Shown in pieces: positions 9,876 to 41,457 of a stretch of DNA of 41,457 bases (position 1 is the first letter of the stretch; every line of letters starts with the position of its first letter). The DNA lies in IMG/VR virus record IMGVR_UViG_3300046028_006105, positions 1 to 41,457 of that record; one strand, 5' to 3'. The notes below the pieces were generated by a model, which did no database searches, had not been told where the DNA came from, and saw only the letters and a program-made list of their open reading frames with translations. A program made the translations under genes and the position numbers. Origin of the DNA: a virus (taxonomy: Duplodnaviria; Caudoviricetes).

Positions 9876-10121
9876 GGTAGTAGGTGATTAAGTTTTAGAA
9901 ACGATAGATAGAAGAAACGAAACTGACTGCGTTTTTCGGGTATCCATTTCTGGGCCTACTCATGGGTAAGGCGTTTTTCGCGGGCCGGTTAAGGGTAGCC
10001 GCCACTCAATGCCTTGCTGTTAAGCATCCCCTTTGAAACTGTTTTTGCGGGAAGCAAGCATTTATTTTGAGGGAAAATGAAAATAAGGCTTGGCAAGCGT
10101 GAAGAAGGAAGTAGCTCTTAG

Positions 10122-10219
10122 CTCATCAAAGCGGCCGTGGAACTCCGCTGAGTAATCAGTTGGTGTTTTAAGGCCGCTTGAAAACTCACTTGTCCTCCAC
10201 GGCCCAAGTGAGTTTTTTT
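10122..10219 (+). ncRNA. C4-antisense-like structured RNA plus terminator, copy A
   Basis: GCGGCC...GGCCGC stem carrying GTGGAA, then hairpin AACTCACTTG/CAAGTGAGTT with a T-tract; its loop CTCCACGGCC is complementary to GGCCGTGGA. Confidence 0.45.
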
Positions 10220-10530
10220 GTGTCCGTCCGGTTACGATCGAGACCAATGAAGCAAGCTTGATCCGAGCTTTGCGGCGCAGCTTCAAGCGCGTAAGCCGAA
10301 AGACTCGTCAGAGGCTAGATTTGCCGACAAGTCCAAGAGAAGGGTTGGGGACTGTTTCCCCTCTTGGCATAATGTTCTCACGTCACCCAGGAATCTCCAG
10401 CTAGGCAAATTGAAACGCACACACTGAAAAGGTGCAGCCGAAGGGTCATTAAATAAGGTCTGGCTTCAGCCTACCTTAAACAGTCCCACTGTATCCCGAA
10501 ATCTCCAGCTTTACCAAAAACTTAACTACT

Positions 10531-10893: not shown

Positions 10894-11156
10894 AAGTCAA
10901 GTTCGTCATGCGTAATTGGGTTATGGTCTAACGCATACTTTTGGCGTCGCCCATCCTCAAAGGTGATTTCAAGGGTGTGCGTATGCTTAGGGAAGTGCAA
11001 CTCAGTAGGCTTAAACACGCGGTAAGTGTACCCAACTGGACGCCACGGCTCCGGTTCTTTGGTAACGGCAACAGGTACTGGTTCAATAACGGCAACTTCT
11101 GGCGTTACATCCACCAGTTCCGCCTCTTCCTTATCGTGCTTTTTGGGTCGTGGCAT
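10869..11156 (-). CDS. Hypothetical protein
   Basis: 95 aa, overlaps the end of the scaffold gene. Confidence 0.65.
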   Translation of the reverse strand: MPRPKKHDKEEAELVDVTPEVAVIEPVPVAVTKEPEPWRPVGYTYRVFKPTELHFPKHTHTLEITFEDGRRQKYALDHNPITHDELDFYGGVLKK

Positions 11157-16564: not shown

Positions 16565-16716
16565 CCCACGCACTCAAGCCCTTTATTCCCCACGCATTCT
16601 AGCCCCCAAATGTATAGAGGGTCAAAAAAATATTTACTAAAGGTATAGTAGCGCAGCCCGCGCCGTTTGGGGCTCCCCCCTCCCATAGGAAACGAGCCCC
16701 CCCCCTACCTATGGGG
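16565..16716. other. Candidate packaging-initiation (pac) region
   Basis: Non-coding TerS-TerL gap with poly-C runs, interleaved inverted repeats and a 17-bp imperfect direct repeat, at the edge of a skew switch. Confidence 0.35.
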
Positions 16717-16986
16717 CGTACGCCCATTACGCAGCATCACACCTACTGCATAATAACTCGCCAGCATAGACTGCTCGCCATATCGCACGCTCTTGTTGCG
16801 ACAGGTGGCGCTCGATTAGACGTAATAAGCATTGTACGTCATCCTAATTGAGACTGGCTACAGGGTCTAAGGCACTGCTTTTGACCGCGTAACACCATGT
16901 AAGCCCATAAATGAATGGCTCTACAGCTCATTAAACGCTCTCAACCCGTACCCTAGCACGGTATAATTGACGCGGGAAGCCTTCGT

Positions 16987-17436
16987 TTACCCCTCGATGG
17001 CCTCTGTTACGCTCTCCGCGAGCTTTTCCCTACGTTCCTGCGCTCCCCTTATTTGAGCGAGTAGCGACGCGCCGGCTTCCAGGTCTACTTTTACAGGTGA
17101 ATCGTAGCCTAACATCTTGCTTGCTTGCGAAATTGCGTCAATGCGCACCTTGGAGCGTTCATCTTCGTTGGTGGCGATGCGTTGGAGCACCTTAAGCATA
17201 TCCTGCTTTTCCCACACGAAGGATTTAGCGAGGTGAACCTGTCGCAGGGCTTGCTGATTCGCAATTTCTTGAATAAGAGCGGGTAAGAGTAGCCAGCGGC
17301 GAGCTTTCTCTGAGCAAGCGGCTTCCGATGAGGTAGAGCCAAGCTTGCGCATAATATCTACTGGATCAACGCCTTGCACGTAGAGTTCAGCGAATAAGCG
17401 TTGGTGAGAGGTCAGGTCAATATTTTGCTTGGGCAT
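16987..17436 (-). CDS. terS: Terminase small subunit
   Basis: Likely start MPKQNIDLTSHQRLFAELYV; HTH-like N-terminus and RIDAISQASKMLG motif; upstream of TerL. Confidence 0.75.
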   Translation of the reverse strand: MPKQNIDLTSHQRLFAELYVQGVDPVDIMRKLGSTSSEAACSEKARRWLLLPALIQEIANQQALRQVHLAKSFVWEKQDMLKVLQRIATNEDERSKVRIDAISQASKMLGYDSPVKVDLEAGASLLAQIRGAQERREKLAESVTEAIEG

Positions 17437-17614
17437 GGGTATAATAACGCGCGTGCGCACGCGTAGGGCAAGCCTAAGCGAGGGTGAGCGTGGGTGAGCG
17501 TGGAACAGGTGGGGAGAACTAAGACACGGGTTACGCCCCGTGCGGGCTTTGACGCTCGTGTAACTCGCTCGCCCGTCTCGACGTATTTTAGCGGGTGGCG
17601 GAGAGTTGTCGAGC

Positions 17615-17836
17615 TTATTCTGGGATGAAGTCGGGACAGGGAGAGGTGGGCGAGTGATGGTGGGAACAATAGCTGAGGGTGGCCGTGGGAGAGTCGCGGT
17701 GAGTCTGGCAGTGGCGTGCGCAGGTGTCGCGGTGGGGGCAGTCGATGGAGTGAAGAAGGGTGGGAGTGCCGTCGGGTAGGCGTGTTGCTTTGGGTAACAG
17801 GCCATCACAGCGGGCGATGTCGTTTGGTAGGTTCAT
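17615..17836 (-). CDS. Small Cys-rich hypothetical protein
   Basis: 73 aa, DIARCDG...CPHRDTCARH...CPDF. Confidence 0.55.
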   Translation of the reverse strand: MNLPNDIARCDGLLPKATRLPDGTPTLLHSIDCPHRDTCARHCQTHRDSPTATLSYCSHHHSPTSPCPDFIPE

Positions 17837-18191
17837 TGGGTTTTAGGTGGGTAAAGAGTGAAATCGTTTCGGTTCGGGGTTATTCGCGAGCACACTTCAC
17901 CCTACGCATTGGTAGGGATGAAGCGGCAAAGAGAGAATCGCATACGGACTGGGAATCCTGCTTCGCAACTCACAAAAGACCGCGCTGGTTCGACTCGTCG
18001 CCCGCGTTGCCGTTGTCGGCATCTTTTGTCATTCACCGACCGCTTGAAGCGATCCGTCACTTTAAAGGCCTGTTTGGGTGTTCGTTCAGGCCGCCAGAGA
18101 ATACTTGCGGGCGAGGTGGTTTAGACCGGCCAGCGCGAGGGATTGCCCCGCTTGTTTCCACCCCGAGAAGAGGGTTTAGGCTTTAGGAAAC

Positions 18192-18285
18192 AGAAAGCCC
18201 GACTAAAGGGCGTGGAGGCTTCAGTCGGGCTAAATGAGCGGCTGAATCGTTAGTCTCCTAACGGATTCCACGCCGCTCGGATGAG
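18192..18285 (-). ncRNA. C4-antisense-like structured RNA plus terminator, copy B
   Basis: Minus strand reads GAGCGGC-GTGGAA...GCCGCTC, then hairpin AGCCCGACT/AGTCGGGCT with loop CTCCACGCC. Confidence 0.45.
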
Positions 18286-18651
18286 ATGAGAAAGAATGAG
18301 GGAGGGAGCGCGAGCAAGCATTTTCTTTGCGTTGGTGGATTGGCCAAGGGTGTTTTTAACCCTTAAAAGCGTATTTGCGGAGTGGGTACACAAAGATATT
18401 TTGAGAGGAGAAACGCACTTATTTTGATTTAATTTTGAGAAAGTGCTTTACTTTGTCGTGGTAATGTCTTTTAGTCCTCACATCGAAAGCGAGACGCCTG
18501 ACAAGCAAGGAGCCAACGAGACCCGATTTTTGAAAGTTAAGTCCGAGGAGGTGAGAGAAAAACTCGACCCCTCTTTTTAATGCAGCTCGCCCAATGCGAA
18601 CGGTCACAAGCCCGATAAATGCAGAGTGAAAACCACACCACACCACACCAC

Positions 18652-21796: not shown

Positions 21797-21919
21797 ATGA
21801 AAACCAAGCAACCAACCATCTACGACGCACTTAAGGAAAAACTAGGCCGAGAGCCTACGCATACCGAGCTATGCAATGATGTTCTAAGGATTCTCCAATC
21901 AGCCAAAAAACAAAAATGA
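21797..21919 (+). CDS. Small hypothetical protein (40 aa)
   Basis: MKTKQPTIYDALKEKLGREPT; overlaps the ERF start. Confidence 0.55.
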   Translation: MKTKQPTIYDALKEKLGREPTHTELCNDVLRILQSAKKQK

Positions 21920-22518
21920 AAACTTCTGAACTAATCGACAAAATTGCGCCCGCTTTAATCGCAGCACAGGCCAAAATCACCTTTGCGACAAAAGACGCTA
22001 CAAACCCGCATTTCAAAAACCGCTACGCAGACCTCCCCGCCGTCATTGATGCCGTAAAACCTGCCTTAAACGGCGCAGGATTGGCCTTTTTGCAAACCGC
22101 TTCACCCAGCGATGACGGAAAACTGCACCTTACCACGCGCTTGATCCACATTAGCGGCCAATGGATCGAGGATTGCGCAGTCTGTCCGCTGCCAAAAGCG
22201 GATCCGCAAGGATTCGGTTCAGCGATGACATACCTTCGCCGCTACTCGTTGGCCTCGATTTGCGGATTATACCAAGACGACGACGACGGAGAAGCGGCAC
22301 GGCATGACAACGCCGCCGCAACTGTAGCCGCCGCGCCCAAAGTTGATGCACTAGCGACAGAAAAGCAGCGCGAAGACCTCAAACTTTTTCTTGGCGGATC
22401 ACCCGCCGAAATTGCAAAGGTAAAAGCCGGACTTGTCGCATTCAAGGTCACGCTTGACACCGTGACTCAAAAGCAGGCCGCAACCATCATCACCCGCACG
22501 AAAGAACTTTCCCAATGA
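21916..22518 (+). CDS. erf: ERF-family single-strand annealing protein
   Basis: NPHFKNRYADL and QGFGSAMTYLRRYSL...DDDG signature. Confidence 0.92.
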   Translation: MKTSELIDKIAPALIAAQAKITFATKDATNPHFKNRYADLPAVIDAVKPALNGAGLAFLQTASPSDDGKLHLTTRLIHISGQWIEDCAVCPLPKADPQGFGSAMTYLRRYSLASICGLYQDDDDGEAARHDNAAATVAAAPKVDALATEKQREDLKLFLGGSPAEIAKVKAGLVAFKVTLDTVTQKQAATIITRTKELSQ

Positions 22519-25783: not shown

Positions 25784-26032
25784 ATGTGGTCTTTACCGAT
25801 AAAAGAACAACCCTTACCAGCCGACCCATACCACAACCAACCAAAGCGTTGGATCGGAGCAACAGCACGCTTTGACCTAAACGGAAAGCGACTCGTTGGT
25901 GTTGTAATGAGTCACGTTTTTACAGGAAGAACCGCCAAAGGTAACATTCCTGATTACGAAGTAACAATTCGCGGCCAATCAGGCGCAGTTTTAACAGTTT
26001 CAATGCACAAAACTTACATGGACATAGGATGA
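25784..26032 (+). CDS. Hypothetical protein
   Basis: 82-aa ORF in the operon. Confidence 0.6.
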   Translation: MWSLPIKEQPLPADPYHNQPKRWIGATARFDLNGKRLVGVVMSHVFTGRTAKGNIPDYEVTIRGQSGAVLTVSMHKTYMDIG

Positions 26033-26487
26033 AAACTTTAACCGAAAATATAGAAATTTACCGTCAGCAGTCAGCCGCCCTACTGGTTACAATAAATGCC
26101 ATTACTCGCATTCTCGACGTTAAAACAACCAACGTCTCACACTCCAAACGCATCAGCATTATCCAGCGCACCATTTGCGAGCATTTTGATTTGCCTGTTG
26201 AAGCCATGCACTCACGGGCGAGAACAAACCGCTACGTCACCGCCCGGCACATAGCCATATATCTTAGCCGAGAACTTACCAAGCACAGTCTAGCGGAAAT
26301 TGCAAAAGCCTTTCGCCCTGATATGGACCACGGAACAGCCTGCTTTGCCGTTAAATGCATACAGAACCGTCTCGACGTAGATAAGCCCTTTAACTCCACC
26401 ATCGCACTCCTCCGCAACACTTGCGCGGAACGTATTACCACGTCAACCGCTGATCTCTTAGACTACGCCAAAACCAAAAAAACGTGA
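26029..26487 (+). CDS. DnaA C-terminal (domain IV) HTH-like protein
   Basis: ARHIAIYLSRELTKHSLAEIAKAF...DHGT signature. Confidence 0.85.
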   Translation: MKTLTENIEIYRQQSAALLVTINAITRILDVKTTNVSHSKRISIIQRTICEHFDLPVEAMHSRARTNRYVTARHIAIYLSRELTKHSLAEIAKAFRPDMDHGTACFAVKCIQNRLDVDKPFNSTIALLRNTCAERITTSTADLLDYAKTKKT

Positions 26488-26981: not shown

Positions 26982-27397
26982 ACGTAAAATTACTTCTCAC
27001 CTCTGCAACCTCAGTAATGCCCAAAACCGCACGCAAAGGTGACGCTGGAATGGACTGCTACGCCAACGAATTTGTAGTAATTGAACACGGTCACACCAAG
27101 AAAGTGCCACTAGGCTTTTCCGTAGAACTACCAGAAGGCTTTGAAATGCAAGTTCGTGGCCGTTCTAGCATGAGCTTAAAAGGCATTCTCTGCCACACCG
27201 GAACCATTGATTCCGGCTATCGTGGCGAAGTAAGCGCCATTATCACTAACTTAGGCCCAGACACTGCTATAATCTCACGGGGCGACCGTATAGCACAGGT
27301 TATTATCACCCACTACGTTGGAACCGTCTTTATGCCCGTTGCATTCCTTAACGAATCAGAGCGTGGAACAGCTAGTTTTGGTTCAACCGGAGTTTAA
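26978..27397 (+). CDS. dut: Trimeric dUTPase
   Basis: AGMD, RSS, GTIDSGYRGE, RIAQ and RG..SFGSTG motifs. Confidence 0.95.
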   Translation: MNVKLLLTSATSVMPKTARKGDAGMDCYANEFVVIEHGHTKKVPLGFSVELPEGFEMQVRGRSSMSLKGILCHTGTIDSGYRGEVSAIITNLGPDTAIISRGDRIAQVIITHYVGTVFMPVAFLNESERGTASFGSTGV

Positions 27398-27400
27398 CTT

Positions 27401-27640
27401 ATGAAACTTGCTCGACGATCCAAATCCAGCCGGCACCGAAAATGCGGCCCTAAAACACTGGCAGCCTTTGCCGACAAGAAAGACCCGGCATTGGCTTTTT
27501 TACGTGATGGTTTTTCCGCCGGCTGGGTCGCCCGAAAACTGGAGTTAACCGAACAACTGGTCACGCACTGGCGCGACGAAGCCGGAATCTCGCCATGCAA
27601 GCCGGGAAAATGTAGGCCAATGCCTGCGGCGACTGGTTAG
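27401..27640 (+). CDS. Small HTH-like protein whose 3' end overlaps a degenerate attC
   Basis: GFSAGWVARKLELTEQLVTHWR is HTH-like; the TAG stop lies inside GTTAGAC. Confidence 0.6.
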   Translation: MKLARRSKSSRHRKCGPKTLAAFADKKDPALAFLRDGFSAGWVARKLELTEQLVTHWRDEAGISPCKPGKCRPMPAATG

Positions 27641-27642
27641 AC
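27548..27642 (-). repeat. attC0 (degenerate)
   Basis: Ends in GCGACTG-GTTAGAC like the other sites; residual stem GCACTGGC/GCCAATGC; ACCGAAC at the left; 95 bp. Confidence 0.45.
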
Positions 27643-27670
27643 ATCCGTGTCTTTGGTTTCCGATTTAATT

Positions 27671-27886
27671 ATGATAACCCGAAAACTCACCGATGCCGAA
27701 AAGGCGTTTCTGTCAGACCTAAATGAACTTATGCGACGCCACGGCGTCTCGCTTTCGGGCTCCGATCAATATGACGGGGCCGATAACTTCGCGGGCACAG
27801 AATACACATTTGAGAAATGGGAACCCCACGCCGAACGGGCCACCGTGTATCTCGAACTCCGCGCCGTGGAAGACATGCTTCCGTGA
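27671..27886 (+). CDS. Cassette 1 hypothetical protein
   Basis: Likely ATG at 27671 (MITRKLTD), 71 aa. Confidence 0.7.
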   Translation: MITRKLTDAEKAFLSDLNELMRRHGVSLSGSDQYDGADNFAGTEYTFEKWEPHAERATVYLELRAVEDMLP

Positions 27887-27896
27887 TTGCTGCCTT

Positions 27897-27992
27897 GGCT
27901 AACGCTCAAGCTCAGCGATGACCACAACACTGAAGACTCCCGAAGCATCAGAGGAAACAGTGTGGTCATTCGCCTGTAGCGCTTGGTTAGGC
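27897..27992 (-). repeat. attC1
   Basis: GGCTAAC..AAGCTCAGCGATGACCACA / TGTGGTCATTCGCCTGTAGC..GTTAGGC, 96 bp. Confidence 0.9.
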
Positions 27993-28030
27993 TCTGATGC
28001 CTTTTAATTTCTGAATAACTAATAAAAAAT

Positions 28031-28270
28031 ATGGGAGCACACTATTTCAACCTGAATAACAAATGCGCGGGAGTGATGCACCTCGCGGACATCTACACAT
28101 TCGAGGGATATACTTTCGAGTGGCATCACTACTGCGGGCCGTTCCGATGCCGAAAGAACGGAGAACCAACCCTAAGGCAACCGATGGAGCGATCAAAATT
28201 CTGGAAGATGCTTGAGCGGTGGGAAAAACTGACGAAGGCCGAAAAAGAAAAAACACGAATCTACGGGTAA
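28031..28270 (+). CDS. Cassette 2 hypothetical protein
   Basis: 79 aa, FEWHHYCGP motif. Confidence 0.75.
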   Translation: MGAHYFNLNNKCAGVMHLADIYTFEGYTFEWHHYCGPFRCRKNGEPTLRQPMERSKFWKMLERWEKLTKAEKEKTRIYG

Positions 28271-28279
28271 TCCCGCCTT

Positions 28280-28368
28280 GCCCAACGTCCAAGCTCAGCG
28301 ATGACCACTGCAACTAGCCGAAAAATTAGCGGCGTCTGCGGGCTATTCGCTGTAGCGACTGGTTAGGC
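28280..28368 (-). repeat. attC2
   Basis: GCCCAAC..AAGCTCAGCGA / TTCGCTGTAGCGACTG GTTAGGC, 89 bp. Confidence 0.9.
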
Positions 28369-28433
28369 TCGATAAGATTGGGCAACCTTTAATATAAACT
28401 GAAAACTCCCGCATACGACGGGCTGATAATAAT

Positions 28434-28709
28434 ATGTATAAACAAGAATACGAAACGAGAATAACCCGAATGACGATTCTGCCAAAGGGCGAGCCGATCT
28501 TCTGTGAGCAAGCCACGCACATCGAAATTGACGACGAATGCGCAGGGGAGTTCATAAAAATAAGCCAAGTCGGAGGCCATGAAGATGACGATAAATTCGT
28601 GCTGTTTAATAGCGACGAATGGGCACTTGTGAACAAAGCCGCGATGCAGCTTTTCTCGGAGATTGCCGCGAGGGAGTCTGAATCCGGTTCCGTTCTGCCT
28701 AACGTTTAA
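28434..28709 (+). CDS. Cassette 3 hypothetical protein
   Basis: 91 aa, EIDDECAGEF motif; ends LPNV* inside attC3. Confidence 0.75.
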   Translation: MYKQEYETRITRMTILPKGEPIFCEQATHIEIDDECAGEFIKISQVGGHEDDDKFVLFNSDEWALVNKAAMQLFSEIAARESESGSVLPNV

Positions 28710-28792
28710 GCTCAGCGATGACCACAACACTGAAGACTCCCGAAGCATCAGCGGTAACAGCGTGGTCATTCGCCTGTAGCGACTGGTTAGAC
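28697..28792 (-). repeat. attC3
   Basis: GCCTAAC...GTTAGAC, 96 bp, near-identical to attC1. Confidence 0.9.
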
Positions 28793-28815
28793 ATCCGAGT
28801 CTTGAGTTTCCGAAC

Positions 28816-29130
28816 ATGATAATCAAAAAACTAAAATCTATAATCGCCCGATGGGCACACGACGACGAAAACAAGCGACTGCGTGAAAAGCTGCGCATGT
28901 ACAAAGGATATCTGCGTGCCGCGAATAAAGGAGCCGAGTGCAATAATCGCGTTAGCCAACTGTCAGCCGCTCGAAATAGCCAGTTGCATGTTCGTATAGC
29001 CGAACTTGAGGACAGGCTTAACGGTAAGGGCGGGCTGACTATGCGGCAGATGGACGAGCTGGCCCAGTTCCGTGAATACCGAAAACTCGGCACGGTAACA
29101 GAACTGAAAACAATGATCGGGCATGGCTGA
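28816..29130 (+). CDS. Cassette 4 hypothetical coiled-coil protein
   Basis: 104 aa. Confidence 0.7.
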   Translation: MIIKKLKSIIARWAHDDENKRLREKLRMYKGYLRAANKGAECNNRVSQLSAARNSQLHVRIAELEDRLNGKGGLTMRQMDELAQFREYRKLGTVTELKTMIGHG

Positions 29131-29140
29131 GTCCGAAACT

Positions 29141-29229
29141 GTCTAACGCCCAAGCTCAGCGATAGCCCACTGAAACTAGCCGAACAATTAGCGACGTTGC
29201 GGGCTATTCGCTGTAGCGCTTGGTTGGGC
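29141..29229 (-). repeat. attC4
   Basis: GTCTAAC..AAGCTCAGCGATAGCCC / GGGCTATTCGCTGTAGC..GTTGGGC, 89 bp. Confidence 0.9.
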
Positions 29230-29259
29230 GTCTTTGTCTTTAATTTCTGAATAACCTAA

Positions 29260-29523
29260 ATGAAAAACATGAACTTATGTATTAACTGTAAGTGGAACGA
29301 GTCAGGGGAATGTAAGGCCCCCCAAAATATGACTAGGCTTAATCCCGTAGATGGCAGTGCATCTTTCCGGTTTATGCGCATGTGTATATCACATCGAACC
29401 GGATTTGGTTCGGGGTGGATAGGGTGTCGATTACACAAACTATGCGGCAGAGAGGGCCGATGGTTTCTGCCCAACGTTCAAGCTCAGAGACGACCACATC
29501 TCAGCGACACCCGAACCATTTGA
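29260..29523 (+). CDS. Cassette 5 Cys-rich hypothetical protein
   Basis: CINCKW...C...CGREGRWF; reads into attC5. Confidence 0.75.
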   Translation: MKNMNLCINCKWNESGECKAPQNMTRLNPVDGSASFRFMRMCISHRTGFGSGWIGCRLHKLCGREGRWFLPNVQAQRRPHLSDTRTI

Positions 29524-29562
29524 GTGATTAGCGTGGTCGTTCTCTGTAGCGACTGGTTGGGC
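29469..29562 (-). repeat. attC5
   Basis: GCCCAAC..AAGCTCAGAGACGACCAC / GTGGTCGTTCTCTGTAGC..GTTGGGC, 94 bp. Confidence 0.9.
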
Positions 29563-29595
29563 GGCTGGTGTATCCCTTCTGAAATAATTGATCAA

Positions 29596-29784
29596 ATGAG
29601 TCTCAACAACGATACGCATAACGGGCCGTGGCCTAAGCCAGTATTCCTGCACAAGTGGGGGTGGGAAGTAATCAAGGCAGGGCCAAACAGATACCAACTA
29701 AGCTGGGCTGGAAAATATAACTACATCGCTACATTCACCACACTGGACGACGCGATCAACTACATGAATCAAGAATTCCTATGA
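29596..29784 (+). CDS. Cassette 6 ORF a, hypothetical
   Basis: ATG at 29596; alternative in-frame GTG at 29524 inside attC5. Confidence 0.6.
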   Translation: MSLNNDTHNGPWPKPVFLHKWGWEVIKAGPNRYQLSWAGKYNYIATFTTLDDAINYMNQEFL

Positions 29785-29939
29785 ACAAACAAAAACTCGG
29801 TGACTGGCTTTTTGAGAACGCACCTATCATAATTATCGCGCTTCCGTTCGCGCTTATGGGAATGGCTGCATACTACCTTAAAAAGTGGACGGTTAACGCT
29901 TTCTTGGCTGGGCATGAACTGGCGAGGGATTGCGATTGA
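29781..29939 (+). CDS. Cassette 6 ORF b, 52-aa membrane peptide
   Basis: Read manually: MNKQKLGDWLFENAPIIIIALPFALMGMAAYYLKKW...; ATGA overlap with ORF a. Confidence 0.6.
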   Translation: MNKQKLGDWLFENAPIIIIALPFALMGMAAYYLKKWTVNAFLAGHELARDCD

Positions 29940-29946
29940 TCGCTTT

Positions 29947-30078
29947 GCCCAACGTTAAAGGTGAGCCGCAGCCCGACAAAATACTATGAAACAAGAAACT
30001 GAAAACCTGACATTAGAAAGCCCTGGGCCGGACGCCAACGTGGAGACTAGGGCTGTTGGCTCTAGCGACTGGTTGGGC
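29947..30078 (-). repeat. attC6
   Basis: GCCCAAC..GGTGAGCCGCAGCCC / GGGCTGTTGGCTCTAGC..GTTGGGC, 132 bp. Confidence 0.85.
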
Positions 30079-30119
30079 GGTCGGTGTATCCCTTCCGATA
30101 ACCTTTAATATAAACTGAA

Positions 30120-30473
30120 ATGATAAATAAGAAAAATGCCGAGTTTCGCGCAATGCTGACCGAGGCAACAAACGCCTCTTTTGACTGCGGCGAATATGAG
30201 TTCTACGCTGGCGAAAAAGTAGAGGAAAACTATGCCGACCTAGAAGATAAATCGACTGCGAAACGGGCAAAGGTAATCGAAACTTATTCCGAGCTTGAGC
30301 GGGAGAATGCCAAGCTGCGCGAGCTTGGAAACGCACTGCGGGACGCGCTCGCTTTCGAGTGCCACAAAATGGGCGATTTCCCGCGTGAGATCGACGCATG
30401 GGATGCCTTGGTGTCTGCATTGCCCAACGCCAGCGATCAGACACGACCCGCACAAGTATCCAACCATGAATAA
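30120..30473 (+). CDS. Cassette 7 hypothetical protein
   Basis: 117 aa with coiled-coil ELERENAKLRE; ends inside the attC7 loop. Confidence 0.75.
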   Translation: MINKKNAEFRAMLTEATNASFDCGEYEFYAGEKVEENYADLEDKSTAKRAKVIETYSELERENAKLRELGNALRDALAFECHKMGDFPREIDAWDALVSALPNASDQTRPAQVSNHE

Positions 30474-30536
30474 CACCACCGAAAACCCCACGAACGCGGA
30501 CAGCTGCGGGTCGTTGTCTGTAACGCCTTGTTCGGC
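30422..30536 (-). repeat. attC7
   Basis: GCCCAAC..GATCAGACACGACCCGCA / TGCGGGTCGTTGTCTGTAAC..GTTCGGC, 115 bp. Confidence 0.85.
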
Positions 30537-30789
30537 TCTGTCTTTTTCTTCTTCCGATTTTGCCCATGCGCTTGTGTGCGCGGATTGGGTGGCGAGCTTC
30601 CAGAGTGCGTGCAATAGAGCTGGCGGCGGGGCATGGGATAGCGTCAAGGGCATGACGGTCGAAGAGGCGATGCACCTGCTTGCACCGAACGGAATCCGAT
30701 TCTGCTACGACTATGCTGCCCACATAGAGAAGGCGCAAGAGGTGGCCGAACAAATGAAGCGTGCCCTTCCTTTTCTGCCGAACGTCTAA
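30466..30789 (+). CDS. Cassette 8 hypothetical protein, starting inside attC7
   Basis: ATG at 30466 (MNNTTENP) is coupled to the stop of the cassette 7 ORF; ends LPNV* in attC8. Confidence 0.65.
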   Translation: MNNTTENPTNADSCGSLSVTPCSALSFSSSDFAHALVCADWVASFQSACNRAGGGAWDSVKGMTVEEAMHLLAPNGIRFCYDYAAHIEKAQEVAEQMKRALPFLPNV

Positions 30790-30870
30790 GCTCAGAGACG
30801 ACCACCTCTCCCTGACACTCGAACCATTTGCGTGCCAAGCGTGGTCGTTCTCTGTAGCGCGTGGTTGGGC
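30777..30870 (-). repeat. attC8
   Basis: GCCGAAC...GTTGGGC, 94 bp, same family as attC5. Confidence 0.9.
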
Positions 30871-30909
30871 TGTATGACTCCGACTTTCCGATAACTAAAC
30901 GATAACTTT

Positions 30910-31122
30910 ATGGACTGGAAAAACTACAAACGAAAAGGGCTCAGTGAAATGCGCCCGTATATCAACGGCGAAAGCCTAAACAAAATCGTCAGTATCTCGG
31001 ATGCCGACTTCAAGAACGGCTCACCGAAAGAGGGAGACATGATCGCACGCAATCCGAAGAACCACGCCGACCAGTGGCTCGTCGCAAAGAAATACTTCGA
31101 GGACAATTTGGAGCCTGCCTGA
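30910..31122 (+). CDS. Cassette 9 hypothetical phage protein
   Basis: 70 aa, EMRPY...GSPKEGDMIARNPKNHADQWLVAKKYF. Confidence 0.8.
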   Translation: MDWKNYKRKGLSEMRPYINGESLNKIVSISDADFKNGSPKEGDMIARNPKNHADQWLVAKKYFEDNLEPA

Positions 31123-31131
31123 TTCTGCATT

Positions 31132-31223
31132 GCCCAACGTTAAAGCTGAGCCGGATGCGCTCCTGTAACCAAACGAACAATCAGCGGGCCAAGGCGCATC
31201 TTGGCTCCAGCGACTGGTTGGGC
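31132..31223 (-). repeat. attC9
   Basis: GCCCAAC..GCTGAGCCGGATGCGC / GCGCATCTTGGCTCCAGC..GTTGGGC, 92 bp. Confidence 0.9.
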
Positions 31224-31263
31224 TCTGTGTCTTTTAATTCTGAATAACTAATAAATAACTAAA

Positions 31264-31560
31264 ATGAGTGATACACCTAGAACCGACAAATTGAAAAACG
31301 CATACTGTGATATGCCTTATATGGATGAGGCTAAGGCTCTAACCATCCTTTGCCACGAACTAGAGTTGGAGAACGCACGACTGCTCGCCAATGAATCCGC
31401 GATGAAAGACCAAATTTGCGAAATGGCGGCGCAACTATCAAAACTCCGTGAAACTGCGCAGTCCGTGGTTGATCGGTGGGAAACCCCGCTGTGGAAGGAC
31501 GTAGAACCAACTGCGGCTTGCATCTATCGGCTCCGAGATTCCTTGCCCAACGCACACTAG
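31264..31560 (+). CDS. Cassette 10 hypothetical phage protein
   Basis: 98 aa, MSDTPRTD start, coiled coil; ends LPNAH* across the last core site. Confidence 0.75.
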   Translation: MSDTPRTDKLKNAYCDMPYMDEAKALTILCHELELENARLLANESAMKDQICEMAAQLSKLRETAQSVVDRWETPLWKDVEPTAACIYRLRDSLPNAH

Positions 31561-31563
31561 GCA
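31545..31563 (-). other. Candidate attI-like insertion site
   Basis: Minus strand reads TGCCTAG-TGTGC-GTTGGGC: a core site with no attC hairpin, at the upstream end of the array in attC polarity. Confidence 0.5.
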
Positions 31564-31707
31564 GAGGATTTGCCAGATAGGCGGGCAACACCCCGCAGGA
31601 ACTGGAAAAAGGTAAGCTTTCCACGGGTAGGCTTAGGTACGTTTAACGCCTGCTAAACTGAAATGCTTTCCATCAGGGTAAGACCCCATAAGCACTGTAA
31701 AAAAACC

Positions 31708-31738
31708 AAATCCCCACTGTAGCAAGTGGGGATTTTTT
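31708..31738. terminator. Probably bidirectional terminator between the convergent arms
   Basis: AAATCCCCACT/AGTGGGGATTT stem with T6 on the right and A-runs on the left. Confidence 0.8.
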
Positions 31739-31742
31739 GTGC

Positions 31743-32078
31743 TCACTTGCCTAAAATCGTGTTGTGCAGTCCTACACTCACCGCCCACGAAATGAACCCA
31801 CCTACGCCACCAATGACAGCCGTAAGCGTAGCCACCCGCACCATTACCGACTGTTGAAATCGCTCCAGCGCCGTAACCCGTCCATTGGTCTTTAATACCT
31901 GCACCTTGATAGCATTTAGTTCTTCCTTTAGCTCAGCCCTAAATACAGCCGTAGCCTCTTTATCGGCCTCACGGTCAATGTCGTAGCGACGATGCCGCTC
32001 CATGATTGTGGCAAACATGGCATTCACGCTGTTGGGATCAAAAGTAGACTCCTGACGATTGCGGTCATCCCAGCTCAT
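31743..32078 (-). CDS. Holin-like membrane protein
   Basis: Coiled coil, KTNGRV motif and a C-terminal transmembrane segment. Confidence 0.45.
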   Translation of the reverse strand: MSWDDRNRQESTFDPNSVNAMFATIMERHRRYDIDREADKEATAVFRAELKEELNAIKVQVLKTNGRVTALERFQQSVMVRVATLTAVIGGVGGFISWAVSVGLHNTILGK

Positions 32079-38500: not shown

Positions 38501-41457
38501 CCATGCTGAACTTGTCCACCTTGTGGGGTGTACCGTGATAGGCGGTCAATGCAAACGTAGTAGGCCCGACCAGTTGCGCACCATCCGGCAACACCGTGAC
38601 GTTGCTTGCGTCCGCAGGCTTTGCCCGTGAATCGCTCAGGCTAAACGTCTCCTCGCCACCCCGCGCATACACTGGATTGCCTCGCGTACTTTCATCGAGT
38701 GCCACCAGCAAGTCATTGACCGTCTGGAATTGGAAGCCTTCGCCTACCAGTGCCTCACGCATTTCATCTAAGCTCAGCGCATTCTTGCGGAATAACCGCA
38801 GGCGCTTACCCGCATCTAAGTTCTCAGCTACCGCTCTAAGCTCACCGCTCATGTCGCCACCCGAAGGAGCCAGCAGACCACCCTTCATGATGATAACGCG
38901 CTGCAACTCCTCAGACGCCTTCACGCCTTGGTTCTTAGCCTGCTTCTTCTCGCTAGCCAGCTCTTGCTTCATGTACCACGCCATTGCCTTGTCTTGCGCA
39001 TCTTCTAGCGTTGTAGTCGTGGCGATAAGCAAGCCGTCAGGATCGCTCACCGTCCAGCCTGCTTCTTCATTGCCCTCAATCTTGGGGAACGTGTCGACTT
39101 TCATCGCCTGAGTTGCCATTTCTTGATCCAGCTCCGACATTAGCGGAACCTCATTCACGCCCCGATCGTCAGCTGTTCCCGTAGCTTCCTGCAATGCGCG
39201 TAAAAACTGGGCAGGCAATGCCCCTTCCCGCTCCATTTGCATGACCTTAGCCGCAAAATCTAACGACTCACGGAACAGCTTAGCAAAACGGTCAAGGAAC
39301 CGCTTAAAACTCAAAGGAAGGTTACTCGCCTCCGTCTCTTGTACTTTGCCCATCGCGTAGCCGACTGCGTACTTGGCGAGCCATTCGTGCATCTCGGTGT
39401 ACTCCATCTTACCCGACCAGCCCGCTTCTACCTGCTTACGCCAACCGTCCACCGTGGCGTTGTTAAATTGGCCTAGTTCAATCTGACGTTTAAAGTAGTC
39501 GTGTGCCGATTCTTCCATGACCACCAAAACGTCACCGCCCTCGGCAATACGAATAGCCGTTACAAACTGGCGCGTCTTGTCATCCCACTTTGTATCACTT
39601 GCCCCGCGTGTTGGCGCTAAGGTATCGAGTGTCGTACCCGCTGGCAACGCCCCAGCCTTAACGTATGCAGCCACTTTTTTCTCTGCCTCTTCCCGCCCAA
39701 ACTGCGCTTCTAGTCCGCCAATCTTGGCTTTTGTCTCAATCGTGGTTATACCGCCCCGTTCAGCTTGTAGCTGTTTAACGTACTCCACCATGTCACTTGT
39801 CGCCTGTAGCGCGTCCTCGCCTTTGAGGTCTTCATTGAGCTTAACCATCTCGGCGTAATTTACGGCCTGTTGCTGAATGCTATTCCAGTTAGCCGCTTCC
39901 TCGCTATCACTCATGTCAAAGTCAACCAACTGACCGTCTTCTTTTAACAGCATGGGCCTGCCTTTATATTCGCCTAGCTTGTCACCGTTTGGCAGTACCA
40001 GTCCATCAGTAGGCTTAAAGTTTTGCGTGATAATCTTTGAGTTGTATTCCGTGCGCGCCGCCTCGTCTCCCTTTGTGGCCTTTAGCAACAGCTCACCTTC
40101 TGGCATCGCCAAGATTTCCTCATCGCTACGCGCCTGCGCTAATAGCTTTACGTCATTCGGCCCAAACGTACCACCATCCTTAGCCGTTAGCATCTTTTTC
40201 GCTTTTTTGGCATCAATGTTTTGTTGCGCCATTTCCAGCGGTGCCACCATGCCTTTCATCATTACGCCGCCCGCAAAGCCTGCAAACGCCTCGCCAGCAC
40301 GCCGCTTGATGTAATCCATGTTTGCCCCGTAATCGACAACGCGCTCGTCGTCATAGGCCATGTCCACGATAAAATCTTCCCATGCGCCTTGCAGCACTTC
40401 TTCCGCGCCTTCAACCGCGCCCGATTTTGCCGCCTGCTTTGGAAACTGACGCAACACTTGTCCCATCGTAACCGAGCCGCCGCGTGACGATGTTTTAACG
40501 GCCAACTCTAAGGCGTTGTCCAAAAACTTAACCGACTCAATTTTTTGTTGAACGGCACCAATGGCAACATCCCCAATAAACTGCCAACCCTCGTTCCTGT
40601 AATCCTCACCCATGAACTCCCTACGATTCTGCGTAGCATTAGCCACCCCTTGCGCCGTTCCCGCAATAGCCGCACCAGCAACCGCAGCTTTGGCCCCCAA
40701 GTAGCCAGCTCGCCCCACATTGGCAATCGAAGCCGAAGCCATAATCGCAGAACTCGCCACCATCTGCCCCGACATTTGCGCCGCCATGCCCACATAAGTA
40801 TCTCGGTAAGCCGCATCAGAGCCGTAACGATCATAGCTCTCTTTTCCTAGCTCAAAGAAAAAATCCGCATGTTCCCGCGCCGTTGACGACAACGCGCCGC
40901 GAATCGTGCTATTCTCCCACTCGGCTTTACGCGCTAAAAATTCTTGATCCAACTCCCGCGCCCTAGACTCGACAATGCCGCGTAATCGCTGCGCTTCATC
41001 CGTGTTGCCAAGGCGATTGTTTTCCAGCCGATACAACTGCCGCATGGTATCGATGTCACTCCCGCTTATGCCCTTTTTCTCAGGGGTTCCGCCTAGAGTG
41101 TTTAACGCACCCTCAATCATGGAGAACAAACCCGCCGCCGTGTCTTGCCCCGTTTTCTCAAACGATGCCCCAGCCGTACGCAAGAACTGCCACGACTTCA
41201 CCTCTTTCTTGTCGGTTTGCGCAGCTTCAACCGGAGCGGCCTGCGTAGCCTGCTTTGGCTGAGAAACAGGCGTTAAAGCCATTTGCGCCGTCTCTGCTTC
41301 ATGCCTTACAATCTCGTCGTAAACGGCACTTGGAGTAAGCTCGCGCCCAAAATACGCACGACTTATGCCAGCGAAGTTGCGGTCAATTTCAGCCTTAGAC
41401 TGATCCACCCGTTGAGATAACCAAAGTGCACTTGCCTCTTGGTCCAATTTCTCAGCC
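35529..41457 (-). CDS. Large internal virion / polyvalent protein (C-terminal ~1975 aa) with an ADP-ribosyltransferase-like domain
   Basis: Open to the window end, true start at 836 through the overlap; internal YHGT...F...GTGEGAQAYGWGLYFAE...NYVIFD. Confidence 0.8.
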   Translation of the reverse strand, partial: AEKLDQEASALWLSQRVDQSKAEIDRNFAGISRAYFGRELTPSAVYDEIVRHEAETAQMALTPVSQPKQATQAAPVEAAQTDKKEVKSWQFLRTAGASFEKTGQDTAAGLFSMIEGALNTLGGTPEKKGISGSDIDTMRQLYRLENNRLGNTDEAQRLRGIVESRARELDQEFLARKAEWENSTIRGALSSTAREHADFFFELGKESYDRYGSDAAYRDTYVGMAAQMSGQMVASSAIMASASIANVGRAGYLGAKAAVAGAAIAGTAQGVANATQNRREFMGEDYRNEGWQFIGDVAIGAVQQKIESVKFLDNALELAVKTSSRGGSVTMGQVLRQFPKQAAKSGAVEGAEEVLQGAWEDFIVDMAYDDERVVDYGANMDYIKRRAGEAFAGFAGGVMMKGMVAPLEMAQQNIDAKKAKKMLTAKDGGTFGPNDVKLLAQARSDEEILAMPEGELLLKATKGDEAARTEYNSKIITQNFKPTDGLVLPNGDKLGEYKGRPMLLKEDGQLVDFDMSDSEEAANWNSIQQQAVNYAEMVKLNEDLKGEDALQATSDMVEYVKQLQAERGGITTIETKAKIGGLEAQFGREEAEKKVAAYVKAGALPAGTTLDTLAPTRGASDTKWDDKTRQFVTAIRIAEGGDVLVVMEESAHDYFKRQIELGQFNNATVDGWRKQVEAGWSGKMEYTEMHEWLAKYAVGYAMGKVQETEASNLPLSFKRFLDRFAKLFRESLDFAAKVMQMEREGALPAQFLRALQEATGTADDRGVNEVPLMSELDQEMATQAMKVDTFPKIEGNEEAGWTVSDPDGLLIATTTTLEDAQDKAMAWYMKQELASEKKQAKNQGVKASEELQRVIIMKGGLLAPSGGDMSGELRAVAENLDAGKRLRLFRKNALSLDEMREALVGEGFQFQTVNDLLVALDESTRGNPVYARGGEETFSLSDSRAKPADASNVTVLPDGAQLVGPTTFALTAYHGTPHKVDKFSMDKIGTGEGAQAYGWGLYFAENKAVAGAYADSVKDVARINKVNAELKSLAEVMSRDAIPGEYRKFRTDEGRKAAELYDAQMAERQRVASSTGNLYTVELLPDADSFLDWDKPLSEQSDKVKAALGKAGRFTQQERTTLPIRNVLEILGTAKEASEKLLAAGISGIRYLDGASRGKGGTSNYVIFDESLVKIIEENGKKVEQAGATTRSLAVDPSNRPKTSEEIALAEEIDRIFAMQKLKSWQRFGLAAVADMQRETMVARVNAANNVARLENNGEFGDAMGRFFLTVRSELDRFAPGLGTLLEISSYEKAKKTARDKKVIVALAEKITALPNANLILEQFRVLARRDDRTNLETLARANGFAKELAAAEAMLTDIRRDIIEAGEEYSRFWSQPANFEASDAFKADMDAAKRVRKGRVGEAVERVLANYGFTKNIEFYWPSKVFDVKGLQEFMRGAVVGSKMEQAYRALEAEAIRKGKAIDEEDLDGMVSKLVANRGKAGPSALKGRTIANEDINFAMMQFYVDPIETALNHVESMRTKIQQRQFFGKSIKLDIEKDRGTGASPIDLVQSTSTLVGALAGQGKLDEQTRNNLKKLIDARFNPTPSMRAVNVMKALGYVFGLGQAYSGLTASVDGLGIGLRENSVNPVGVFTGLIQAVTGKNKITLEEAGIDIRDIGAEFQSGEKWEDSMVRWVFKWNGLTYLSKTFVQAGLNAALNNAIKTAKKGNMSGLQQKRLQRLFGQDAAQVEAMLAAGQKTPETMLFAWATVATYQPISQDQQSQAMLTSQYGKLFFQFRSFLTVQFSGMRDDCYNEIKSGDKTRMMNGTKQLLALTATLLMLGLPMEALKAWLTGRTFILDEQITNRLLGLIGLNAYVTREARRDPIRGATSLMIPAVGSTVTDLWRDADDLIAYAKASDQTDMTLAELLLNARVLSNVPFIGRIYDERLGSNAERNAQQREDIGWFVTTKPKEEGADEESLTRKIRALEKRVQGN
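40746..41457. repeat. End overlap, right copy
   Basis: Matches 6-717. Confidence 0.95.

Follow-up and report, generated by a model that had tools for sequence, protein, structure and literature searches.

Integrons are modelled as arrays of promoterless genes that lie upstream of attC sites and are read from the promoter Pc, and they are currently viewed as anti-phage libraries. In the classic integron, as described in PMC5027507, an integrase (IntI) acts at an attI site and recombines the folded bottom strand of attC at 5'-AAC-3'. Phages also carry clusters of attC sites lacking an integrase (CALINs): Qi et al. 2023 (PMC9892861) reported 17 of them, and 5 of 6 tested sites recombined with IntI1. 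We analyzed an array of nine attC sites in the Caudoviricetes virus record IMGVR_UViG_3300046028_006105, which has a completeness rating of 100%. The whole stretch of 41,457 bp is referred to here as the window. The array ends in an attI-like site, and its genes lie on the bottom strand of attC, behind the hairpin; we think it likely that an IntI supplied by the host cuts and inserts cassettes there at AA|C.

The closest described systems share some of these features and differ in others. Like the attC sites described by Nivina et al. 2016 (PMC5027507), the window sites have the standard box order, spacers and bulges at 16 and 23, an apparent GAA-type loop on the bottom strand, the AA|C crossover, and a core and inverse core that match within the cassette. 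Unlike those integrons, the window has its genes on the bottom strand behind the hairpin, out of reach of any promoter of the Pc type; the first bulged base is T, and the bottom strand has no folding advantage. The phage CALINs of PMC9892861 are similar in being attC clusters without an integrase and in carrying methyltransferases, whereas reversed genes, an attI-like end and a rule of reading frame are not mentioned in the parts of that paper available to us. A comparison of the sequence of phage TJE1 with the oligonucleotides of PMC9892861 places its CALIN in the ordinary arrangement, with the top strand and the genes both on plus.

Sedentary chromosomal integrons of Verrucomicrobia and Planctomycetes (for example IMCC26134, locus L175) have attC sites of the same sequence family as the window, but in L175 the genes lie on the top strand in 10/10 intervals and intI is divergent from them. 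In the inverted-integrase integrons of Treponema, as presented in PMC3607928 and PMC4889954, intI and the cassette genes share one strand, as they do in phages that carry intI; in Treponema it is intI that is flipped, toward attI, while the genes keep the attC orientation, whereas in the phages intI is in its usual position and orientation and the genes are flipped. A single inverted cassette, symE/sRNA-Xcc1, is described in Xanthomonas, together with short open reading frames (ORFs) encoded by attC (10.1101/2025.06.18.660453; review PMC8876359). As far as these sources go, the bacterial inverted cassettes resemble the window in having lone genes opposite to Pc and translation coupled through att sites, but they are exceptions in ordinary arrays; in the window reversal is the rule, coupling uses the bottom strand, and the crossover falls within a codon. 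A full-text literature search, which most subscription papers lay beyond, found no whole reversed arrays in phages.

Polarity of the attC sites and of the cassette genes

Nine full attC sites lie within 27897-31223 (Table 1). On the plus strand all nine have the same order of parts: an R box, 6 nt, a 7-nt box, the loop, an 8-nt box, 5 nt and a second R box (7-6-7 ... 8-5-7). The fifth base of the right-hand 8-nt box is unpaired in 9/9 sites (T in eight, C in site 9, where positions 4 and 5 tie), and this arm contains another bulge as well. The initial annotation, made from the letters of the sequence, had placed the bulges in the right arm of the plus strand, with spacers of 6 nt on the left and 5 nt on the right, and this was borne out at every site; the reverse complement of site 4 that it quoted is also correct. 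The bottom strand of attC aadA7, given in the supplement of PMC9892861, has the same layout as the plus strand of the window, and the window bulges fit the extrahelical bases reported at positions 16 and 23/24 of attC (PMC5027507). On boxes, spacers and bulges, the window sites are attC sites.

An outside measure of polarity came from a covariance model of 24 top strands from three host arrays adjoining an integron integrase, with polarity set by the neighbouring integrase. The host sites were initially found by a pattern derived from the window, so that only the polarity label is independent. The model matched the minus strand over its full length at 8/9 sites, with 42.6-67.2 bits, and in part at site 6 (17.8 bits), in agreement with the earlier claim that the sites are canonical on the minus strand. 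The best plus-strand score across the nine sites was 9.9 bits. Another weak plus-strand match, of 15.6 bits at window 11009-11103, spans the end of a gene, has no attC boxes and is probably due to chance. A strict structural finder returned 5 matches, all of them on plus, and none in any of 5 shuffled windows; it also returned no site in TJE1 or MW202573. Of 155 viral hairpin loops, 71 have CGAA and 5 have TTCG, and Rfam gave no family at gathering level over 27000-32000, with two weak matches. A CALIN is defined in PMC4889954 by at least two attC sites on the same strand within 4 kb and no integrase nearby, which is the case here; we class the array as a CALIN that has an attI-like end, not as a complete integron.

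Eleven ORFs, all on the plus strand, lie between 27647 and 31560, so that the typical layout of a gene on the top strand with attC downstream is violated 11/11 times. All eleven had been placed on this strand from the outset, although those starting at 27647 and 31264 fall outside the interval 27897..31223 then considered. Outside support as genes exists for 9/11: three have PHROG matches, two of them weak, third-position bias against homologues supports five, and ORFs 30910 and 30466 have database homologues (1555 for the cassette 8 protein, gene 30910-31122). The other two are ORF 29260, whose sole match is an identical copy, and ORF 27647, which has neither a homologue nor other support as a gene. 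By comparison, 0/10 tested minus-strand ORFs of the window had a PHROG match. None of the 11 array ORFs was above the Pfam cut-off, and the array has no blastn match among the INPHARED phages.

The reversal extends to other phages. Host arrays next to an integron integrase have their longest ORF on the strand of the top form in 104 of 129 intervals; viral arrays have it on the strand of the bottom form in 69 of 95. The longest-ORF rule picks the wrong strand for 3/8 window intervals, and homology tests were added on account of this noise. ORFs of viral arrays with a PHROG match numbered 18/91 on the bottom strand, several of them related copies, and 2/97 on the top strand. Among 62 viral contigs from pattern scans, 10 had no full site.

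That all cassette genes are inverted holds for the window array but not for phage arrays generally, some of which carry genes on the top strand. One phage array (L006, 200-800) has a toxin-antitoxin cassette (ParE toxin) in ordinary orientation together with a reversed cassette, and that of L004 has top-strand genes, one of them directly adjoining the attI-like site. A comparison of 324 viral ORFs with 129 host cassettes, a small sample, found no reversed phage cassette and no gene in common. Reversed cassettes carry many DNA methyltransferases, from several families, as well as RNA ligase and PAPS reductase (L003, L009, L010, L035, L038, L040, L042, L061, L066, L067).

Reading frames often run into the hairpins. 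Five of the eleven window ORFs cross the crossover, each reading AAC in frame as Asn. One ORF starts inside hairpin 7. AAC is in frame in 64/73 crossing ORFs of viral arrays, against 6/13 in the host control; stop and start overlap by 4 nt in 40 of the 58 viral hairpins that contain both. Methyltransferase matches often start at residue 22-28, behind a leader encoded by the hairpin. The long array of L053 (1551-7778), in which ORFs are chained by 4-nt stop/start overlaps in the hairpins, mixes reversed and ordinary cassettes.

The cassette unit, its putative docking site and a natural variant

The right end of a window site matches the left end of the following site with 1 mismatch, compared with 7 against its own left end (in 9, p 0.004). 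Across 85 junctions in 21 viral arrays the same pairing left 56 mismatches, against 87.9 after shuffling (p<1/5000), rare variants included. Outside attC, the ends of 95 viral cassettes gave no sign of pairing (5.39, against 5.35 after shuffling). The pairing of site ends indicates that these units behave as cassettes, but not which end is cut; that the cut end is the left AA|C is indicated by the terminal R box and by a natural variant that lacks cassette 8.

The array ends on the right in an R box followed by a conserved stretch that is not attC. In an alignment of 13 sequences (two identical) conservation begins at this R box, and its variable first letters track the last cassette, with 4 mismatches against 14.5 after shuffling (0/100000 shuffles; 18 arrays out of 19 loci supplied). 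The terminal R box thus covaries with the last cassette as expected of an attI junction, and we regard the site as a putative attI. The consensus fold of the element at 31545 is weak, just -3.45 kcal/mol, which rules it out as an attC or a structured RNA. The site is oriented against the early operon. The cassette genes point toward it, so that a Pc located there could not express them, and a promoter scan was at chance level (4 found, 4.8 expected). Inside the element, window 31600-31640 contains a second block with TAGG and a short palindrome, candidates for additional sites of protein binding. L247 (6412-7470) shares the border gene and the attI-like element; its downstream genes run opposite and belong, by eye, to a different-looking head module.

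Lake-water metagenome runs contain DNA near-identical to the window. The contig graphs of runs X17 and X18 fork after 30785, and one contig, whose first 20 letters are window 30756-30775, goes on into site 9. The deletion removes 355 bp, consisting of the hairpin 8 body and the gene behind it. The joined ends have five bases around AAC in common; the join made no use of a 10-base match between the right ends. In X17 the depth was 4.8 for the cassette 8 contig and 9.2 and 9.6 for its flanks, and the deletion contig continues for 950 bases with one difference, which places it in the same phage population. Other joints at left-end R boxes were found in X19 (31552) and X24 (30425 to 29145).

The initial annotation had defined the unit as a hairpin followed by its own gene, each exchanged at AA|C at the left end, and had proposed that crossovers be mapped in variant arrays. 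The 355-bp deletion and the terminal junctions agree with that unit. So do the ordinary cassettes in phage arrays: their own sites lie to the left, as this definition predicts, and are the top-scoring sites of the host model, at 82-83 bits. The X17/X18 join and the terminal R box likewise place the crossover at AA|C in left-end R boxes. The proposal stands less well on two counts, taken up below: the linkage of hairpin and gene is weak in phages, and some breakpoints lie at right ends, where right arms are also exchanged.

Table 1. Features of the cassette array and its surroundings; positions are those of the window, and bits are scores of the host-derived covariance model.
Feature	Position	Strand	Remarks
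Erf-family single-strand annealing protein	21916..22518	+	PF04404, E 6.5e-23; also PHROGs; candidate for homology-driven exchange
Fixed 79-aa gene, left array border	27401..27640	+	98% identity in relative L027, 68% in L004; different cassettes behind it in each
Half-site 0, attC right arm alone	27622..27642	+	In L004 the same border gene ends normally and a full attC is next
ORF 1	27647..27886	+	79 aa from GTG, 71 aa from ATG 27671; no homologue found
attC site 1	27897-27992	top strand on -, predicted recombining strand on +	50.5 bits
Cassette 1 gene, 79 aa	28031..28270	+	Differences to L271 at codon positions 1/2/3 = 0/2/14
attC site 2	28280-28368	-	52.2 bits
Cassette 2 gene, 91 aa	28434..28709	+	phrog_20561, E 8e-7; crossover AAC read as Asn, stop in site 3 spacer
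attC site 3	28697-28792	-	48.7 bits; 92% identity to site 1
Cassette 3 gene, 104 aa	28816..29130	+	Leads array of relative L027
attC site 4	29141-29229	-	52.4 bits
Cassette 4 gene, 87 aa	29260..29523	+	Stop in site 5 loop; L019 copy has other neighbours on both sides
attC site 5	29469-29562	-	61.9 bits
Cassette 5, two genes (62 aa, 52 aa)	29596..29939	+	
attC site 6, long loop	29947-30078	-	Partial model match, 17.8 bits
Cassette 6 gene, 117 aa	30120..30473	+	Stop in site 7 loop; 8-nt overlap with next start
attC site 7	30422-30536	-	42.6 bits
Cassette 7 gene, 107 aa	30466..30789	+	Start inside hairpin 7; two homologues with different hairpin-like N-termini
attC site 8	30777-30870	-	67.2 bits
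Cassette 8 unit, 355 bp: hairpin 8 body and gene 30910-31122	30783..31137	+	Missing from part of wild population
attC site 9	31132-31223	-	56.5 bits
Cassette 9 gene, 98 aa	31264..31560	+	Terminal AAC read as Asn; attC behind it in L004 and one X19 contig
attI-like docking site (putative)	31545..31700	-	R box 31545-31551, then ~150 nt conserved non-attC stretch
Terminator-like hairpin, both strands	31708..31735	.	Consensus match only; between array and converging late genes

Genome setting, recombinase and probable host

The minus strand of the window carries the terminase and the head and tail genes, and the plus strand Erf, exonuclease, helicase loader, RuvC and dUTPase (PHROGs). The cassette array is the last part of the plus-strand gene run, before the converging late genes. 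A gene with a DnaA C-terminal helix-turn-helix domain (PF08299) lies upstream of RuvC at 26029-26487, and few clear genes are found at 9876-10530, in the gap between capsid and protease, and at 16690-18600, around the strand switch. The window ends, 1-717 and 40741-41457, form an imperfect 717-bp repeat, and of its 41 differences 37 fall within positions 312 to 633; it is either a mixture of strains at the ends of the assembly or a real duplication. The direction of replication is not visible from the GC skew of the window. At the left border, half-site 0 is probably the product of a deletion that fused the end of the fixed gene to an attC arm. It was ruled out as attI by L004, where the border gene ends normally and is followed by a full attC.

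No tyrosine recombinase (PF00589) was found in the window genome (0/1), whose record has a completeness rating of 100%. An integron integrase above the TIGR02249 cut-off occurs in 3/49 viral records with such sites, and a fragment in a fourth, in a search that left out fifteen viral loci and L068. A stop was flagged within two of the three matches; L307 nonetheless has an open frame of 318 aa. All three phage integrases lie on the gene strand, directly behind an R box whose sequence agrees with the site before it; this is the usual attI-intI geometry with the cassette genes flipped. These phage-owned genes (L064 2625-3626, L307 1483-2439, and L308) are co-directional with the reversed cassettes, and the L064 copy lies directly before the terminase gene.

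The search of the window genome yielded no integrase, which makes cutting by a host integron integrase likely. Among the loci collected, all nine window sites have a verrucomicrobial site as their closest counterpart. In the likely host order, that of Geminisphaera, which we take to be Opitutales, 61 of 301 genomes pass the integron integrase cut-off, and 3 of 401 have a terminase homologue (35-38%). Sequence relationships of this kind make a host in the order Opitutales probable.

Alternative explanations and the proposed cassette cycle

A number of observations weigh against recombination of the plus-strand hairpins by a host IntI, and they bear on three other explanations. The long attI-like element has only short, chance-level matches, in 8/401 genomes of the likely host order, and nhmmer found no match for it in the host loci and none to host attI regions. 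Such a docking element without a match in hosts, together with several early ORFs that belong to no family, would suit a different recombinase, be it a Xer-type enzyme of the host, the integrase of a helper phage or an unrecognised phage protein. We give this explanation hardly any credence: the sites share their family with those adjoining bona fide IntI in hosts, and where phages with these sites carry a recombinase, it is IntI.

The sites themselves depart from expectation in two respects. At the first bulge they have T (C in site 9), where the usual base is G, and when both strands were folded, as had been suggested at the outset, the plus strand was more stable in just 4/9 window sites and 73/155 viral sites, against 42/49 verrucomicrobial sites, so that the bottom strand has no advantage in the window. 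Right arms are also exchanged, at half-site 0 in L027 and in run X21, and loose ends occur at 28369, 29229 and 31223. Breakpoints at right ends and the lack of a folding bias between strands could mean that IntI works on both strands, with substantial top-strand recombination at G|TT at the right end and a cassette that consists also of a gene and the hairpin downstream; PMC5027507 documents top-strand recombination of some attC sites, at low frequency. This is very improbable in our judgment, as the docking site that does not fold lies at the right end of the array and is cut there at AA|C, and the plus-strand bulges occupy the bottom-strand position. The formation of cassettes, too, predicts right-end breakpoints between similar attC sites with different genes.

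Half-site 0, although a point of right-arm exchange, cannot fold, and hairpins are loosely tied to genes. In phages, the hairpin body was at least 80% identical in 3/12 pairs that share the downstream gene (median 0.69) and in 2/10 that share the upstream gene (median 0.65); in hosts the corresponding counts were 47/61 and 1/12. Homologues of ORF 30466 have differing hairpin-like N-termini. These facts, the loss of the bottom-strand folding bias, the Erf gene and the failure to find an integrase in the phage genome would all fit sites that derive from host attC and are now mainly repeated linkers, with genes swapped by Erf or by replication slippage via short homology and hairpins kept as joints for translation; slippage can delete a folded attC, as a preprint on attG indicates. 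We consider this unlikely as a full account, since the cassette 8 deletion used five bases at AAC and passed over a longer match, of 10 bases, at the right ends; the R boxes change together from gene to gene, in rare variants as well; bulges and stems are maintained; and the attI-like site is conserved among different phages. A second route of exchange driven by homology, plausibly by Erf, is the simplest account of the right-arm exchange and of the weak hairpin linkage.

The variant and the reading frames also have limits. The variant lacking cassette 8 was present in 2 of the 8 runs examined, which may belong to one campaign, and it consists of assembled contigs (a 20-nt loose end and graph borders) rather than raw reads; an automated listing of joints was silent on it. 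Some ORFs counted in the frame and overlap statistics are antisense shadows of ordinary cassettes, as seen in L053, and the real number of genes is therefore overstated.

With these reservations, recombination by a host IntI at AA|C suggests the following cycle. The plus strand would fold while single-stranded in phage replication, the host IntI would excise a circle composed of hairpin and gene, and the circle would re-enter at the attI-like site beside the terminator, so that the early operon would gain new cassettes at its far end. As the docking site opposes phage transcription, only reversed cassettes would be expressed, and selection may for this reason have fixed both the reversed layout and a common reading frame. 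With AAC read as Asn, and the stop and next start within the hairpin, any order of cassettes would work. As proposed in the initial annotation, the genes would be transcribed with the phage early operon and would lie antisense to Pc in a host integron. Ordinary host cassettes may enter but would sit antisense. By the second route, homology-driven exchange between the repeated arms, probably by Erf, would swap hairpin bodies.

More tentatively, and at somewhat less than even odds in our view, the array may belong to a mirror-image cassette economy that runs on the host integrase. The phage would own the attI and a frame-locked attC joint that permits translation in any order, and the opposite polarity would silence host defence cassettes in the phage and phage cassettes in a host integron. 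If so, the occurrence of one gene core behind different hairpins would represent cassette formation in progress. The natural joints between genes and hairpins bear on the question of cassette origin, and sites 8 and 9 and the site at 31545 are ready substrates for a standard assay.

If our interpretation is correct, phages borrow the shuffling enzyme of their hosts, and three things would show it: a whole class of arrays laid out in the opposite sense, an attI-like site in phages most of which have no integrase, and a polymorphism of one cassette in the wild. Phage accessory genes shuffled in this way, many of them DNA methyltransferases, would be a counter-move to the anti-phage libraries held in integrons.

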